Part shown: piece after piece, positions 5,436 through 19,267 of the stretch
How positions within the stretch are numbered: position 1 is the stretch's first letter
Layout: each line of letters begins with the position of its first letter
Source: Methanothermobacter marburgensis str. Marburg
Lineage (GTDB): Archaea; Methanobacteriota; Methanobacteria; Methanobacteriales; Methanothermobacteraceae
Direction: 5' to 3'
NCBI RefSeq assembly: GCF_000145295.1
Contig: NC_014408.1
Location: 510,001 to 542,000 of the forward strand
DNA length: 32,000 nt
The notes under the pieces: generated by a model
Told to the model about the DNA's origin: nothing
Seen by the model: only the letters and a program-made list of their open reading frames with translations
The model's database searches: none
Translations under genes and position numbers: made by a program

Positions 5436-5990
5436 TTGACTGAGAGTCCAGATTATGAGGTTGAACTGGAAGACGGTGACTTTGAGATAAGGTGCTATCC
5501 CGGGTACATACTGGCACAGGTGGATGTTGAGGGGAACTTCAGGGATGCGATGCTTAGGGGATTTTCCATCCTTGCAGACTACATATTCGGGAATAACAGG
5601 CGCAGGGAGGAGATTCCAATGACATCCCCAGTAACTGGAGTCAGGCTGGGGGAGAAGATACCAATGGCAGCACCGGTTACAGAGGAGAAACTTGATGATG
5701 GGGGAGTCTACAGGATATCTTTTACCATGCCATCATCCTACACCCTTGAAACACTTCCAGAGCCCAATGACACACGTATAAGGTTCAGGGCTGAGAAGAA
5801 TCAGAGGTTTGCGGTCTATAAATTTTCAGGAAGGGTAAATGAGAGAATGGTGGAGGAAAGAACTGGTGAATTCAGGGAGTGGCTCAGAGAAAATTCCATA
5901 AAACCCAGGTCCAGCTTCATAGTTGCCCAGTATAACCATCCTGCAGTCCCCGGTTTCCTGAGAAGGAATGAGATCCTTGTGAAGATATAA
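5436..5990 (+). CDS. SOUL/HBP-family (heme/tetrapyrrole-binding protein-like) protein
   Basis: 184 aa with a TTG start. YEVELEDGDFEIRCYPGYILAQVDVEGNFRDAMLRGFSILADYIFGNN... and MTSPV / MAAPV match the SOUL heme-binding family pattern. Confidence 0.85.
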   Translation: MTESPDYEVELEDGDFEIRCYPGYILAQVDVEGNFRDAMLRGFSILADYIFGNNRRREEIPMTSPVTGVRLGEKIPMAAPVTEEKLDDGGVYRISFTMPSSYTLETLPEPNDTRIRFRAEKNQRFAVYKFSGRVNERMVEERTGEFREWLRENSIKPRSSFIVAQYNHPAVPGFLRRNEILVKI

Positions 5991-10133: not shown

Positions 10134-10589
10134 TCATTGCTTTCTTATGAATCCAAGAATATTTCTGAAACCTGACCCTTCACTTTTTCTTTCTACCTTC
10201 ATATCCTTCACAAAGTCCGCAAGCCAGTCTGCAAGTCTGTATTTCGAAAGACCAGCCGGTTCAACCCATGCAAAGCCCTCATGTTCGTGGCTCAGCTTCA
10301 CATTACCCGCGGCTTTGCACTGGATTATTATATGAACAGCGTTTATTATCGGGAACTTCTGTTCAACAACCCCCATAACATCACCAGGGGTTATTTCAAG
10401 GCCGGTTTCCTCCCTGACCTCCCTTTTGAGGGCCTCCTCAAGGGACTCGCCGGTACCCACCTTTCCACCGGGAAGCTCCCAGGTGGATGGGTTGGTCTTT
10501 GAATTTTCAGATCTTTTGATTATGAGAACCCTTCCGTTATCATCCTCAATGAATGCCCTCACAGCCAGTATATAAACACTTCCCACCAT
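10134..10589 (-). CDS. NUDIX hydrolase (MutT family)
   Basis: Nudix box [24 protein letters not shown] (GX5EX7REUXEEXGU). Confidence 0.9.
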
Positions 10590-10656: not shown

Positions 10657-11726
10657 CTACTTCCAGTCCCTGAACTCAATTGAGAAACGGGTCCCACCCT
10701 CTGATTCAACTTTGAGGTTACCATTCAGCTGGTCAGTAAGGCTTCTTACAAGCTGCATACCCATACTGGGCGTGCTCTGGAGGTCAAAGTTCTCTGGAAG
10801 ACCCACGCCGTCATCTTCAATCGCAAGAATGTAACTGCCATCCCCTTTTTTAAATGAAACCCTTATTCTACCTTTTTTCCCTCAGGGAATGCATGTTTGA
10901 TTGCATTTGTGAAGAGCTCATTTACAATGAGTGTCAGGGGGACAACCGTGTTTATATCGAGTTCAGCCTCATCTATATCTGTCTCAAGGGCTATGCGGCC
11001 CGGATCCGATAGGAATGTCTGATAGAGGTCCCTCACAAGTCCCCTCAGGTATTCACCGAAGTCCACCCTCCTGTGTTTACCTGAAGTGTAAAGCCGCTCA
11101 TGAAGCATGGCCATTGCTCTGGCCTTTGACTGGGCCTCCCTGAAGAGCATGAGATCATCCCTATCCTTCACATACCTTGACTGGATATTGAGGATGCTTG
11201 AGATTATCATGAGGTTGTTCTTGACCCTGTGGTTTATCTCCCGGAGGAGCATCTCCTTCTCTTTGAGGGCTTTTTCCAGTTCCATGTTCTTCTTTAGAAG
11301 TTCTCTTCTGGCTGCAGAGAGCTGGTTGTTTAGCCTTGTGAGTTCATCAAATAGTTCTTCTTTTACATCCCCACCAGCAGATGGACCCATTTCTGGTGTT
11401 TCAGGCAGCTCAGTATCAACAAGGCGGTAGATTTTTATCATATCCTCCTTTCTGGCTGCACCAACAGCGTAGATCCTTTCATCAGCCATGAAACCTGAAA
11501 AGTGGTAGGTCTTAAGGTTCTTTAAATTCAGTTCCCAGTTATAGGCGGCCCCTTTATCATTGATCTCCTGGATGAAAAGGGAGGCCTTTGCCTGGCTACC
11601 CATATCCATGAGGTCAACGAAGGATTCAATGGTCAGGGGTATGTTGGATCCATGGTCTATTATCTTTTCAATGAATCCATCCTTCCTCAGGATAAGGAAA
11701 ACACCCTCAGGTCCATTATTATTCAT
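10657..11726 (-). pseudogene. Sensor histidine kinase (HisKA_2 dimerisation/phosphoacceptor plus HATPase_c) interrupted by a -1 frame change. It is either a pseudogene, a homopolymer assembly error, or a recoded gene.
   Basis: Frame 0 (11726->10863) gives the sensor domain, the H-box ([16 protein letters not shown]) and the N-box ([20 protein letters not shown]), then VE-stop. The -1 frame continues without a stop as [71 protein letters not shown], ending at 10657. This is the missing G1/G2 half of the ATPase domain. Confidence 0.85.
10872..10878 (-). other. A_AAA_AAG heptamer at the exact point of the kinase frame change
   Basis: Minus-strand codons are GGA AAA AAG GTA GAA TAA. The X_XXY_YYZ pattern is in register with frame 0. 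A -1 slip reads GGT AGA ATA AGG, the continuing kinase frame. Confidence 0.8.
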
Positions 11727-11765
11727 TCTATAACCTTCAATAGCTTAAAGTCTAAAAAGGATCTT

Positions 11766-12830
11766 CTATTCTGTTTTCAGGAATTCTTCAGCCACCCTCA
11801 CGGCGCTGGAGGCACTGGCGGCGTGCAGATCGGCTCCGACCTTCCTCCAGAGTTCAGTGTCCACATTGAATGGGTAGCCACCCACCATTACAGGGGGAGA
11901 ATCATCCACTTCCCCAAGCAGTTTTATGAGACTTTTCACATGTCCAACGTTGAAGGTCATGGTGGCTGATACAGCAACAAGGTCAGGCTTCAGTTCATCC
12001 ACGATCTTTCTGAAATCCTCCGGTGGAGTGCTGGCCCCAAGGTAAACAGAATCCCAGCCATTGATTTCAAAGAAATCACTGACCATCCTTATTCCTATCT
12101 CATGCAGCTCATTGTTAACGCATGCAGCAACAAGCCTGAGGTTTTTCCGCTCTGATGCCGGGTATATGTACGGGTAGAGTTCTGACATTATCATCTGTGT
12201 CACTGACGTTGCATAGTGTTCGTGGGCAACCGATATCTGGTTGGTCTGCCATAACCTGCCGATTTCATGCTGGACAGGCTCAAAAACATGGAGGTATATG
12301 TCCTCAACACTCACACCGGAGTTCAGGGACGAGATTATGAGGGCCCTGGCCTTTTTTGCCTCTGTATTCAGAACAAGTTCAAGGTACTTCTCTGCAAGGT
12401 CCCTCAGGGGCTGATCCCTGATGTAGCTTGGCGGTTTATGTTCCATTTCAAGTTTCCTGAGGGAACCTGAGATGTAGCTGGAAGCAAGGGAAGCGGTTTC
12501 ATCGTCTAGAATTTCCAGCATAACCTTTTCCATACTTTTAAGTGAACCCCTGAGGCACTCTTCAGGGAGCCCAAGGTTCCTCAGAAGGATATCGGCCCAG
12601 AGGACGTAGTCCTCAAAGAGTTCTGGACTTGAATTTCTGATGGCCTCCTCCAGGTAGTCCAGATGGTAATTTATGTCTTGTATGCACAATTCCCTATCTT
12701 CAGGACTTACAAGGCCCTTCCCCTTAAGATCGTCATATATGGCGGATACAAGGGATTCCCTTGGGACATTGATCCCCATTAACAACACCCCAATATATTT
12801 AAGTTTGAACCCCAATAAGAGATTTATCAT
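11766..12830 (-). CDS. Cobalamin-binding protein: N-terminal helical domain, B12-binding_2 cap with Wx9EH, and a Rossmann B12-binding domain (CarH/AerR-like module)
   Basis: W194-x9-E204-H205 (RLWQTNQISVAHEH, nt 12216-12251). E241-L-H243-E-I-G246, then 41 residues, S288-A-T290, then 26 residues, G317-G318. This fits the canonical (D/E)xHxxG-41-Sx(L/T)-26/28-GG spacing exactly by my count. The start could instead be M18 (12779, GGGGTG SD). The gene ends 39 nt before the kinase start. Confidence 0.85.
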   Translation of the reverse strand: MINLLLGFKLKYIGVLLMGINVPRESLVSAIYDDLKGKGLVSPEDRELCIQDINYHLDYLEEAIRNSSPELFEDYVLWADILLRNLGLPEECLRGSLKSMEKVMLEILDDETASLASSYISGSLRKLEMEHKPPSYIRDQPLRDLAEKYLELVLNTEAKKARALIISSLNSGVSVEDIYLHVFEPVQHEIGRLWQTNQISVAHEHYATSVTQMIMSELYPYIYPASERKNLRLVAACVNNELHEIGIRMVSDFFEINGWDSVYLGASTPPEDFRKIVDELKPDLVAVSATMTFNVGHVKSLIKLLGEVDDSPPVMVGGYPFNVDTELWRKVGADLHAASASSAVRVAEEFLKTE

Positions 12831-12848: not shown

Positions 12849-13031
12849 ATGAAGTCATCGGAAGGTTTCAGAATAATTTCAACCACAGGAGAATGTCCGG
12901 AATGTGTCTACAGATGTGAGGTTGTCCTTGAGGATCTTGGAGAGATTAAGCTTTACTGCAGGCACCCCATGGGACCGGGTAGCCCCGCACACTGCATATA
13001 CTTTAAGAGGGATAGGAAAATCAGCAGATGA
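12849..13031 (+). CDS. Putative small Cys-rich protein (60 aa)
   Basis: MKSSEGFRIISTTGECPECVYRCEVVLEDLGEIKLYCRHPMGPGSPAHCIYFKRDRKISR has 5 Cys, including CxxCxxxC. The ORF track starts it at GTG 12840. The SD is weak and no family was recognised. Confidence 0.4.
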   Translation: MKSSEGFRIISTTGECPECVYRCEVVLEDLGEIKLYCRHPMGPGSPAHCIYFKRDRKISR

Positions 13032-16599: not shown

Positions 16600-17268
16600 T
16601 TGCATATCATGGAAGGATTTCTGCCCCCGGAGTGGTGTCTCTTCTGGTATCTCCTATCGGCACCTGTCATAGTTTATGGTTTAATCAGGATAATAAGGAT
16701 TTCAGATGAGAGGCCCGAGGCAAAACCGCTTCTTGCAGTTAGCGGCGCGTTCATGTTTGTTCTATCATCCCTTAAACTTCCATCTGTAACTGGTAGCTGT
16801 TCACACCCCACAGGTAATGGGCTCGGGGCTGTACTCTTCGGCCCTGCAGTCACATCTGTCTTGGCACTCATTGTTCTCATATTCCAGGCGCTGCTCCTTG
16901 CCCATGGGGGCATAACAACCCTGGGGGCAAACGTGTTCTCCATGGGTATCATTGGCCCGGTCTGTGCCTGGGGAATCTACAGGATCACAAGGTCAGCGAT
17001 ACCCTCATCTGCCGCGGTCTTCCTTGCAGCATTTCTGGGCGACCTTATGACCTATGTGACAACATCAATCCAGCTTGCGCTTGCATTCCCTAAACCCGGT
17101 TTCATGGAAGCCCTTGTGAAGTTCATGGTGATATTCGCCTACACCCAGGTTCCACTGGCGGTTGCCGAGGGCCTTCTCACCGTGGTGATATTTGAGAACA
17201 TCCTCAAGCTCAAGCCTGATATAATGGAGAAACTTCAGGTTATAGGAAAACCTGCTGTGGAGGGTTAA
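16600..17268 (+). CDS. cbiM: ECF-type cobalt (or nickel) transporter substrate-capture component CbiM
   Basis: The N-terminus MHIMEGFLP is the conserved metal-ligating CbiM/NikM N-terminus, which fixes the start at TTG 16600 (AAGGTGAT SD, 3-nt spacer). The protein is multi-TM. Confidence 0.92.
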
Positions 17269-17269
17269 A

Positions 17270-17557
17270 ATGGATAAAAGACACACCATAATGCTCATTG
17301 CAGTTGCGGTGATTGCCATAGCACCCCTTGTAATCTACAGTGGCCTTGGAGAGGATCAGGGATACTTTGGGGGGGCAGATGACAGTGCAAGCAAGGCAAT
17401 ATCTGAAACAGGGTATAAACCCTGGTTCCAGCCAATATGGGAGCCACCAAGTGGTGAGATAGAGAGCTTGCTATTTGCTCTCCAGGCCGCCATAGGTGCC
17501 CTCATAATAGGATACGTCTTTGGCTACTACAGGGGGAGGGGAGAATCCCCTGAATAA
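17270..17557 (+). CDS. cbiN: Cobalt transport protein CbiN
   Basis: 95 aa with two TM helices and the motif GYKPWFQPIWEPPSGEIESLLFALQAAIGA. It starts 1 nt after cbiM. Confidence 0.9.
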   Translation: MDKRHTIMLIAVAVIAIAPLVIYSGLGEDQGYFGGADDSASKAISETGYKPWFQPIWEPPSGEIESLLFALQAAIGALIIGYVFGYYRGRGESPE

Positions 17558-17579
17558 AATTTTTTCATGGTGAAGGACG

Positions 17580-18344
17580 ATGAACATATCTGTTGACCAC
17601 TATGCACATACCAATGGCCTCAGAAACACGAGCCCTGGCTTTAAGATGGCCCTGGCCATTATCACAATGCTCATTTCAGTCCTATCACCAAACCCTGTTA
17701 TACCCCTCATCATCGCATTTCTAATGACACTCCTGATTCTCTTTGCAGCGGATATACCCGCCTCATACTACCTGCGGTTTGCCGCCATCCCTGTGGGATT
17801 CGGTGTTCTGACACTCGTGCTCATGGCGCTATTCTTTGGTGTGAACCCCCTTGTAACATTCATGGGCCTAAGGATCTACAGTGATGGCCTGCACACTGGT
17901 ATTCTAGTCTTCTCGAGGATACTCGGCGGGTTTTCATGTCTTGCCTTTCTCGCACTCACGACACCCCTCAATGAGGTCTTCCATGAACTTGGAAGGCTGG
18001 GTCTTCCAGCGGCTTTCATTGAGATAGCCCTCCTCATGTACAGGTCCATATTTGTTTTCCTTGAGGAGGCGTCAGTGATGTATAATGCCCAGGATTCAAG
18101 GCTAGGCTACAGTGGTATTAAAAATTCCTACAGGTCCCTGGGGCTCCTTGCAGGTAACCTCTTTATAAGGTCCTGGCTGAGGGGTGAAACGGTGTACCGT
18201 TCAATGGAGGCGAGGTGCTATCAGGGGACCATGCCATCCATCAGAAGGCAGTCCATTGGAGCCCGTGAAGCGGTTATGATAGCATTATTTGATGGGTTAC
18301 TTTTAGTGGGGCTTCTTTTCACATCAAAGGGTGTCATCTTCTAA
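17580..18344 (+). CDS. cbiQ: ECF transporter transmembrane (T) component CbiQ
   Basis: 254-aa polytopic membrane protein positioned between cbiN and cbiO. The C-terminal region has the RSxxxxxxAxxxRxY-like motif (RSWLRGETVYRSMEARCY). Confidence 0.88.
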   Translation: MNISVDHYAHTNGLRNTSPGFKMALAIITMLISVLSPNPVIPLIIAFLMTLLILFAADIPASYYLRFAAIPVGFGVLTLVLMALFFGVNPLVTFMGLRIYSDGLHTGILVFSRILGGFSCLAFLALTTPLNEVFHELGRLGLPAAFIEIALLMYRSIFVFLEEASVMYNAQDSRLGYSGIKNSYRSLGLLAGNLFIRSWLRGETVYRSMEARCYQGTMPSIRRQSIGAREAVMIALFDGLLLVGLLFTSKGVIF

Positions 18345-18430
18345 TCTGCTTCTGTGAGGATACCACCGGGGCACAGTTAAATATTAAATGAACACTATTC
18401 ATCATATGGTCAGTTTCCAGTGGTGTGAAC

Positions 18431-19267
18431 ATGAAGATTATTGAGGCAGTAAATATCAGGTACACCTACCCCGATGGCACCGAGGCACTGAAGGGTATAG
18501 ATTTCCATGCAAAAAAGGGTGAGGTGGTGGCCCTTCTTGGCCCCAACGGCGCAGGAAAGTCCACACTCTTCCTTCACTTCAATGGCATACTGCAGCCAAC
18601 CAGTGGGAAGGTGCTGGTAGATGGGAAAGAAATCGACTACAGTAAATCAGGGCTCATAAAAGTCAGGCAGAAGGTCGGAATCGTATTCCAGAATCCTGAT
18701 GACCAGCTGTTCGCACCAAGGGTTGACGAGGACGTTGCATTTGGACCCCTCAATATGGGACTTGATGAGGACGAGGTTGAAGAGAGGGTTAAGGACGCCC
18801 TGCGGAAGGTGGGAATGTCAGGCTACGAGGACAGACCCCCCCACCACCTGAGCGGGGGTGAGAAGAAGAGAGTTGCAATAGCAGGTATACTTGCCATGAA
18901 ACCTGATATAATGATACTTGATGAGCCAACCTCCGGCCTTGACCCGCGGGGGGCATCGCAGATACTCAGACTGCTGCATGAGCTGAATGAGGAGGGCATG
19001 ACCATAATCATATCCACCCATGATGTTGACCTGGCACCCCTCTACTCGGACAGGATATACATAATAAGCGGGGGAGAGATAATAAGTGAGGGAACACCAG
19101 GAGATGTTTTCTCAGATATAGATACCATAAGGGGCGCCGACCTCCGTCTTCCAAGGATAGCGCATCTGGTGGAGATACTTCAGAAGGAGGATGACCTCCC
19201 ATTCGGGGAGCCATACCCCCTCACTATCGGGGAGGCCAGGAGAAAACTCCGTGACCAGCTGAAATAG
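18431..19267 (+). CDS. cbiO: ECF transporter ATPase CbiO
   Basis: Walker A GPNGAGKST, signature LSGGEKKR, Walker B ILDEPTSGLD. I prefer ATG 18431 to GTG 18425. Confidence 0.92.
   Translation: MKIIEAVNIRYTYPDGTEALKGIDFHAKKGEVVALLGPNGAGKSTLFLHFNGILQPTSGKVLVDGKEIDYSKSGLIKVRQKVGIVFQNPDDQLFAPRVDEDVAFGPLNMGLDEDEVEERVKDALRKVGMSGYEDRPPHHLSGGEKKRVAIAGILAMKPDIMILDEPTSGLDPRGASQILRLLHELNEEGMTIIISTHDVDLAPLYSDRIYIISGGEIISEGTPGDVFSDIDTIRGADLRLPRIAHLVEILQKEDDLPFGEPYPLTIGEARRKLRDQLK

Follow-up and report, generated by a model that had tools for sequence, protein, structure and literature searches.

What does a cobalamin-binding protein encoded directly upstream of a histidine kinase sense in a methanogen, and through what does it act? 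We addressed this question for a gene pair in a stretch of 32,000 nucleotides (nt) of the Methanothermobacter marburgensis str. Marburg genome (contig NC_014408.1, positions 510,001 to 542,000), referred to below as the window, whose own numbering is used throughout. An earlier interpretation of the DNA letters, the sequence-only reading, had recognised in the upstream gene a CarH-like cobalamin (B12)-binding module and had proposed a two-protein system in which this module gates the kinase in response to light, redox state or corrinoid. Our analysis suggests that the upstream gene encodes a photoglobin-B12 fusion, that is, a photocobilin-type two-chromophore sensor in which the globin stands N-terminal to the B12 domains. 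We put the probability of this reading at about 0.68; both cofactors are predicted. The two genes are called the sensor and the kinase genes, and together the cassette.

The sensor gene and its domains

The longest open reading frame (ORF) of the sensor gene covers 11766-12830 and translates into 354 aa. The sequence-only reading had this length right; the gene lies on the minus strand, as do all features of the cassette, and its true start is probably M18 (ATG at 12779), which would give a protein of 337 aa encoded at 11766-12779. This start is probable because the NCBI orthologues are 334-338 aa long and begin at M18, and residues 1-17 align to nothing. Residue numbers given here follow M1 of the 354-aa ORF; the M18 start shifts all of them by -17. 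The closest relatives are Methanothermobacter proteins, from strain K4 (92% identity) and then from lineages at 76%, 69% and 56% identity. The sensor gene is intact and evolves under purifying selection, with a ratio of nonsynonymous to synonymous substitution rates (dN/dS) of 0.13 in the comparison with strain K4.

The N-terminal photoglobin-like domain (residues ~24-130, 12441-12761) is followed by a B12-binding_2 four-helix cap (residues 145-218, 12177-12398; PF02607, E 4.5e-15) and by a B12-binding Rossmann domain (residues 232-334, 11829-12137; PF02310, E 2.7e-24). The cap helices are seen in the AlphaFold 2 model of the full-length protein (predicted local distance difference test, pLDDT, 89.4; predicted template modelling score, pTM, 0.82). 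The adenosyl-pocket motif of photoreceptor-type B12 domains, W194-x9-E204-H205, is encoded at 12216-12251 (translation WQTNQISVAHEH), and the E241-x-H243-x-x-G246 motif of the B12-binding domain at 12093-12110. Both motifs, and the spacing ELH243EIG, 41 residues, S288-A-T290, 26 residues, G317-G318, had been described from the letters and are exact in the translation. The Pfam E values, far beyond chance, indicate that these B12 motifs lie in genuine domains. In an alignment of 121 homologues of the sensor, W194, E204, H205, E241, H243, G246, S288, G317, G318, G191, P269, D52 and W78 are invariant (121/121), which answers the question of conservation raised about the Trp, Glu and His residues.

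The N-terminal domain of the sensor

The sequence-only reading could place the N-terminal domain in no family that it recognised. Profile and fold matches identify it as a photoglobin, i.e. a five-helix, phycobiliprotein-like globin of the bilin-binding type. The Pfam Phycobilisome match to this region is weak and sub-threshold. The best solved relatives of the whole sensor are SasPcob (8J2W/8J2X, E 4.7e-23) and AbPcob (8J2Y), and the C-terminal globin of these photocobilin structures aligns with sensor residues 49-109. When the N-terminal domains of 26 homologues were combined into a profile, it matched allophycocyanin beta at 7e-7, the 8J2W/8J2X globin at 1.5e-5 and the 8J2Y globin at 4.4e-5. 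The AlphaFold model of the photoglobin alone (pLDDT 90.7) has five helices, and Foldseek returned with it smURFP-biliverdin, many allophycocyanins and the 8J2W globin at template modelling scores of 0.65-0.69. The fold search with the full-length model aligned the B12 half only, because the domain order of the sensor is permuted relative to 8J2W.

The residues expected to hold a chromophore are present. The motif C49-I-Q-D52 (12675-12686) matches the CXQD motif reported for photoglobins by Rockwell et al. (PMC10151467); it aligns on the CLRD chromophore site of allophycocyanin, with C49 at the position of the bilin-attachment Cys. Of the 121 homologues, 78 have Cys at position 49 and 32 have Ser, and C49 is kept in all Methanothermobacter proteins. 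D52 aligns with Asp270 and W78 with Trp296 of SasPcob, a match made via the offset between the PDB chain index and the numbering of the paper. In SasPcob, Asp270 and Trp296 hold biliverdin and touch the corrin, the Trp contacting ring D (PMC10979010).

SasPcob and AbPcob (8J2W/8J2X/8J2Y; Zhang et al. 2024, PMC10979010) thus share with the sensor the photoreceptor-type B12 domain, with its W-x-EH and E/DxH motifs, and the five-helix phycobiliprotein-like globin. SasPcob is likewise a stand-alone protein able to regulate a partner via protein-protein contact. However, B12 comes first in the crystallised proteins whereas the globin comes first in the window sensor, and identity with the photocobilin structures is ~28% over the B12 part. 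The attachment position carries a Cys in the window sensor and a Thr in SasPcob, and SasPcob His137, which contacts a bilin propionate, is replaced by Asp. The partners differ as well, being diguanylate cyclase or SpoIIE/STAS proteins for photocobilins and a histidine kinase for the window sensor. Zhang et al. (PMC10979010) grouped predicted photocobilins by the N- or C-terminal position of their adenosylcobalamin (AdoCbl) domain. In the portion of the computational study of Schneider et al. [quoted passage not shown] This is the same family as the window sensor.

The photoglobin identity of the N-terminal domain bears on a second likeness proposed from the letters, that to AerR-type sensors. 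It argues for a photocobilin-type sensor and not for an AerR-like one. AerR and PpaA are stand-alone cobalamin-binding antirepressors that act on a partner regulator, and the likeness is one of mode of action only: they bind hydroxocobalamin via an upper His in a B12 domain of the SCHIC type, have no fused globin and target CrtJ/PpsR, not a kinase.

The B12 module: photoreceptor or methyltransferase type

The comparison with CarH proved sound at the level of the B12 module, for which the best solved relatives are the photocobilins 8J2W/8J2Y and the light-responsive CtMerR B12 domain (8JBS). CarH of Thermus thermophilus and Myxococcus xanthus, in which AdoCbl is the light-sensing chromophore, has the same B12-binding_2 + B12-binding module, with W131/E141/H142/H177 as the equivalent residues. 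It differs from the window sensor in having a MerR DNA-binding domain and DNA binding as its output; no helix-turn-helix match was found in the sensor with Pfam, and its output is predicted to be a separate kinase. With the NCBIfam model TransRegCarH, whose cut-off is 400, the sensor reaches 61.7 bits, over profile positions 81-262 only. CarH carries a His beside the cap Trp (H132 in the T. thermophilus protein), which forms the bis-His light state. The equivalent position 195 is Gln in 121/121 homologues, and a CarH-like bis-His light state is therefore unlikely; SasPcob is also without one.

The cap and the Rossmann fold, together with base-off/His-on motifs, are shared with the corrinoid proteins MttC (7XCN), MtmC (3EZX) and MtaC (2I2X). 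A methyl-transfer function like that of MtaC, MtbC and MttC was also considered: the sensor has MttC and MtmC structures among its fold neighbours, JGI labels the gene 'methanogenic corrinoid protein MtbC1', and there are weak NCBIfam matches to MtgC, MtbC and pyl_corrinoid (E ~1e-15), of 56-60 bits where the curated cut-offs are 215-370. Indeed, NCBIfam scores are alike and low for CarH, MtgC and MtbC (57-62 bits versus cut-offs of 350-400); scores of profile hidden Markov models (HMMs) alone leave the choice between the CarH type and the methyltransferase type open, and it is the motif evidence that decides for the photoreceptor type. W194/E204/H205 align with W61/E71/H72 of SasPcob and H243 with SasPcob H108; the triad has its W/E/H counterparts in SasPcob, AbPcob and CtMerR, whereas MttC, the trimethylamine corrinoid protein, has F/V/L at these positions. 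In addition, the sensor scores 31-60 bits with the methyltransferase-type models, far under their curated cut-offs of 215-450, its globin is fused to the B12 domains, its conserved neighbour is a signalling protein, and no methyltransferase genes (MT1/MT2) were found in the window or at orthologous loci. MttC, MtmC and MtaC themselves are without the triad (MttC being the protein compared), without a globin, and encoded beside methyltransferases. A role in methyl transfer is thus very improbable, and we rejected it on the sub-cut-off scores, the triad, the signalling neighbour and the fused globin. The assignment to sensor modules made in the sequence-only reading is thereby upheld. Finally, three of the four elements of the light-response signature of SignatureFinder (GxxW, EH, GxxH, GxxxP) occur in the sensor, as GRLW, EH and GASTP, while the GxxH element deviates slightly.

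Conserved pairing of the sensor with a partner protein

If the sensor acts on the adjacent kinase, the two genes might be expected to stay together. All Methanothermobacter loci examined have an intact HisKA_2 + HATPase_c kinase of 353-356 aa directly downstream of the sensor gene, on the same strand. These loci come from four lineages (56-96% identical), namely K4, the 76% lineage, which includes the delta-H orthologue cluster, a 56% metagenome-assembled genome and CaT2. The gaps between sensor and kinase range from -4 to 91 nt; that of CaT2 is 39 nt, as in the window.

A scan with one genome per species gave 590 confirmed relatives, the best 80 loci of which were examined (L008-L087). No Methanothermobacter is among these 80, synteny within the genus having been obtained by a separate look-up of the encoding contigs. 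They belong to Anaerolineae, Acidobacteriota, Azospirillum, Heliobacterium, Planctomycetota, Methanobacteriaceae, Methanotrichaceae, Methanohalophilus and others. At 64 of the 80 loci, the gene immediately downstream encodes a protein with, at its N-terminus, the ~110-aa domain of the window kinase; a coiled-coil linker with the consensus LYDELSRLNNEL..QRELAKKN comes after this domain. Overlaps of 4 nt between this gene and the sensor gene are frequent. Among 59 downstream proteins scanned (58 from the best 80 loci and the K4 kinase), HATPase_c was found in 52, HisKA in 50, GGDEF in 5 and a receiver domain in 5. The third gene of the bacterial loci often encodes a receiver domain. In a rough neighbour-joining tree, drawn without support values, the Methanothermobacter clade lies nearest other methanogen sequences.

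The N-terminal domain of the partner has no Pfam match (E up to 1), and PDB sequences searched with its profile gave none either. An HMM derived solely from 31 bacterial partner proteins matches the window kinase at E 2.8e-19, over a domain encoded at 11406-11714. It hits exactly one ORF per locus and 72 of 3448 ORFs overall. Moreover, residues ~5-180 of the K4 kinase align with bacterial partners in pairwise phmmer comparisons, despite different phosphoacceptor Pfam families (HisKA_2 versus HisKA). The conserved unit is therefore the sensor together with a partner carrying the ~110-aa input domain, which is at present the strongest indication that the sensor acts on this domain. The domain looks like a dedicated, unannotated family of input domains of kinases and diguanylate cyclases, and we propose it as the site at which the sensor docks or delivers its input. 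What is established here is the identity of the domains, the conservation of the motifs, purifying selection and the conserved pairing with a specific N-terminal partner domain.

The linkage to the kinase, whose conservation had been in question, is thus seen at all Methanothermobacter loci examined and, in terms of the partner domain, at 64/80 loci elsewhere. The proposal that a cobalamin-binding subunit acts on the adjacent kinase gains support from this conserved linkage to a kinase or signalling protein across phyla. The second part of that proposal, that such a pair would be unexpected in a methanogen, fared less well: the family occurs in many anaerobes and in several methanogen lineages, and has been published (PMC8717448, PMC10979010). 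The two-gene cassette of photoglobin-B12 protein and partner is a known kind, found in many bacteria and methanogens. What is new is the defined input domain of the partner, the heme-less host and the broken kinase in this strain; the ~110-aa partner domain, Methanothermobacter and heme-less hosts are not treated in the portion of Schneider et al. (PMC8717448) available to us.

A frameshift in the kinase gene

The stop codon of the sensor gene (11766-11768) is separated from the kinase ATG by a spacer of 39 nt (11727-11765), with a GAAGGT Shine-Dalgarno-like site 6 nt before the ATG. Distance, kinase family and ribosome-binding site had all been correctly read from the letters. The spacer also contains a T5 run (CCTTTTTAG, 11740-11755, minus strand), which could act as a partial archaeal terminator and yield more sensor than kinase.

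The first frame of the kinase (10863-11726) encodes 287 aa, comprising the partner domain, the coiled-coil linker, HisKA_2 (kinase residues 163-237, 11016-11240; PF07568, E 2.2e-26), with the H-box region EINHRVKNN, and the start of HATPase_c. As the sequence-only reading had implied, the frame is broken. When the DNA is aligned with that of K4, CaT2 and the 76%-identity lineage, the lesion falls in an A6 run (10873-10878) that is one base short. CaT2, the closest genome used for comparison of the cassette (96% DNA identity), reads GGGAAAGAAAGG where the window reads GGGAAAAAAGG, the missing base appearing in the alignment as GGGAAA-AAAGG. The in-frame product therefore ends at 287 aa, before the ATP-binding G-boxes. 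The remainder of the gene (10657-10875) continues in the shifted frame for 72 codons plus stop; it encodes the HATPase_c G-boxes (DDGVGLP..GMGMQL), matches the C-terminal end of the orthologues and reaches the stop codon that they use (10657-10659). HATPase_c is thus intact in the orthologues but not in frame in the window kinase. Against K4, dN/dS is 0.10 for the first 282 codons and 0.36 for the 72 shifted codons. Programmed frameshifting was set aside, as all relatives encode one uninterrupted frame.

The 1-nt deletion is either a recent real mutation or a sequencing error, and the output arm is accordingly either inactive or mis-sequenced. In the former case the cassette might be a decaying relic in this strain, a sensor left without output. 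The single missing base stands against three relatives, one of them 96% identical in DNA, and the truncated product is without the ATP-binding G-boxes. In the relatives the site reads AAAGAAA or AAGGAAA and is not a pure homopolymer, which makes a simple length miscall less obvious. On the other hand, the resulting A6 run is a classic site of sequencing error, no further lesion interrupts the 72 codons of the shifted frame before the orthologous stop, the sensor gene is intact and under purifying selection, and the kinase is intact in all other lineages. We consider decay in this strain a possible but less probable explanation.

Light, bilin supply and other signals

Several observations weigh against a photocobilin-type sensor working through its kinase in this organism. 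The GxxH element of the light-response signature is N-E-L-H in Methanothermobacter, a Gly being present there in 86/121 homologues. Methanobacterium/Methanobacteriaceae relatives at five of the 80 loci (L014, L019, L020, L031, L075) have no adjacent partner gene. The kinase carries the frameshift described above, and no receiver domain was detected in the window by CheY phmmer searches of all ORFs of at least 60 aa and Pfam scans of ORFs, in line with the absence of a response regulator noted in the sequence-only reading. The source of a bilin poses a further difficulty: AhbABCD was found in 0/102 Methanobacteriales genomes, i.e. no protoheme synthesis (PMC8351635), strain delta-H is without ahb-nir genes (PMC3004389), and the window contains no heme oxygenase. 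Finally, experimental work so far concerns B12-first photocobilins, not globin-first members nor sensor-kinase pairs; SasPcob and AbPcob are the only members known to bind AdoCbl and biliverdin and to answer light by Co-C cleavage and an altered oligomeric state.

Because Methanobacteriales have no protoheme pathway and the window no heme oxygenase, an endogenous bilin is unexplained. A local supply can be envisaged for some bacteria. At ~24-28 of the best 80 loci, all bacterial, a gene for a ~99-aa protein of the ABM fold lies directly upstream of the sensor gene (for example L013:5661-5957, L025:5572-5868, L028:5560-5856 and L045:5578-5874). It is matched best by HmuQ and IsdG/IsdI, which degrade heme, at E ~1e-12 and below curated cut-offs, and this HmuQ/IsdG-like gene is a plausible local supplier of bilin for the globin. 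No such ABM/heme oxygenase gene was found in the window or at any archaeal locus. In Methanothermobacter, the globin may take up a scavenged bilin, may bind another tetrapyrrole or may serve only as a lid. One more specific scheme, which we regard as speculative and unlikely, is that the globin pocket is filled by a scavenged bilin or by a tetrapyrrole of non-heme origin, for example from the siroheme, F430 or corrinoid branch. This would turn the cassette into a two-chromophore sensor of an archaeon, responding to light or to tetrapyrrole/redox status, with the ~110-aa partner domain as a dedicated, previously undefined receiver module for photocobilin-type sensors.

The same protein module might also serve a non-photic function, reporting the supply or form of cobamide (adenosyl, hydroxo, methyl), or redox state or O2 via the state of the cobalt. 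The kinase would then adjust corrinoid- or stress-related genes, and the globin would be a structural lid, as is partly so in AbPcob. The organism is corrinoid-rich and anaerobic, the order to which it belongs offers no obvious bilin for want of a heme pathway, AbPcob binds biliverdin poorly yet works, the family is common among non-phototrophic anaerobes, and the cobalt transporter genes cbiMNQO lie ~3.8 kb away. However, four unrelated genes separate cbiMNQO from the cassette. The invariance of the triad, D52 and W78, together with the retention of C49 in Methanothermobacter, is hard to explain for a ligand-free domain, and photolysis of AdoCbl alone switches the output in those relatives that have been characterised, the other cobalamins having no such effect. 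Light exposure is also part of the biology of the genus, as judged from its photolyase gene. We therefore hold a purely non-photic role to be improbable and retain the photocobilin-type reading, although the sequence does not tell which of light, redox state or corrinoid is the signal. Methanothermobacter carries a photolyase gene according to the literature, our searches of which gave nothing specific on photoreceptors or responses to light in this genus. Given this gene and the frequency of the family in other anaerobes and methanogens, the notion of a host never exposed to light is weak.

Neighbouring genes

Other genes surround the cassette in the window. A small Cys-rich ORF of 60 aa (CPEC...C...HC; 12849-13031, plus strand) is divergent from the sensor gene, with a spacer of 69 nt. 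It is conserved in K4, CaT2 and the 76% Methanothermobacter lineages (E 1e-33 to 1e-38), has no Pfam match, and was not found in other phyla; nor was it found in the 56% lineage, whose contig (L005) stops 161 nt upstream of the sensor gene. Downstream, a NUDIX hydrolase gene (10134-10589, minus strand) follows the kinase in every Methanothermobacter lineage, with a gap of only 8 nt in the most divergent one; it may share an operon with the cassette but is not part of it in other phyla. A homologue of the SOUL heme-binding protein is encoded at 5436-5990 (plus strand; Pfam E 8.5e-45), ~6 kb from the photoglobin gene, and its position is conserved at the K4 and 76%-lineage loci although the order is without heme biosynthesis. 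Upstream of the sensor, cbiM-N-Q-O occupy 16600-19267 (plus strand), and the intervening genes are pyrF, an unknown gene, deoxyhypusine synthase and an HrcA/Rrf2-CBS regulator; nothing was found that would link cbiMNQO functionally to the sensor. We rejected cbiMNQO, SOUL, NUDIX and the Cys-rich ORF as parts of the cassette, since they are genus-specific neighbours absent from it in other phyla. At the Methanobacterium loci, genes for DUF5518 and a GMC-type flavin adenine dinucleotide (FAD) oxidoreductase lie downstream of the sensor, and two HisKA_2 kinases are encoded 2-5 kb off on the opposite strand.

Proposed mechanism and significance

By homology with SasPcob/AbPcob and CarH, the C-terminal half of the sensor would bind an adenosyl-cobamide in the base-off/His-on form via H243. 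The adenosyl group would pack on W194/E204/H205 at the interface of a head-to-tail dimer, which would represent the dark state, while the N-terminal globin would hold a linear tetrapyrrole edge-on to the corrin via D52, W78 and possibly C49. The Co-C bond may then be cleaved by green light directly or by red light by way of the bilin, whereupon the cap helix bearing E204/H205 would move and the oligomeric state would change. The conserved gene pairing suggests that the ~110-aa N-terminal domain of the kinase receives this change through protein-protein contact; the autophosphorylation of the kinase would be set in this way, with gene expression being controlled via an unlinked response regulator. 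There is precedent for such a contact, as stand-alone photocobilins regulate a diguanylate cyclase through protein-protein contact in vitro (PMC10979010). Cofactor binding, the light response and the contact between sensor and kinase are what we infer from homology and gene pairing.

These results give a testable identity to a gene that is labelled 'B12-binding domain-containing protein' or, wrongly, MtbC1 or MerR regulator. They raise the questions of whether a heme-less strict anaerobe senses light and, if so, which tetrapyrrole occupies the globin pocket. The sensor-kinase pair may also serve the building of optogenetic tools. A globin-first photocobilin with its dedicated kinase or cyclase would be a simple two-protein system from a thermophile, in which B12 photochemistry could be followed through to a kinase.

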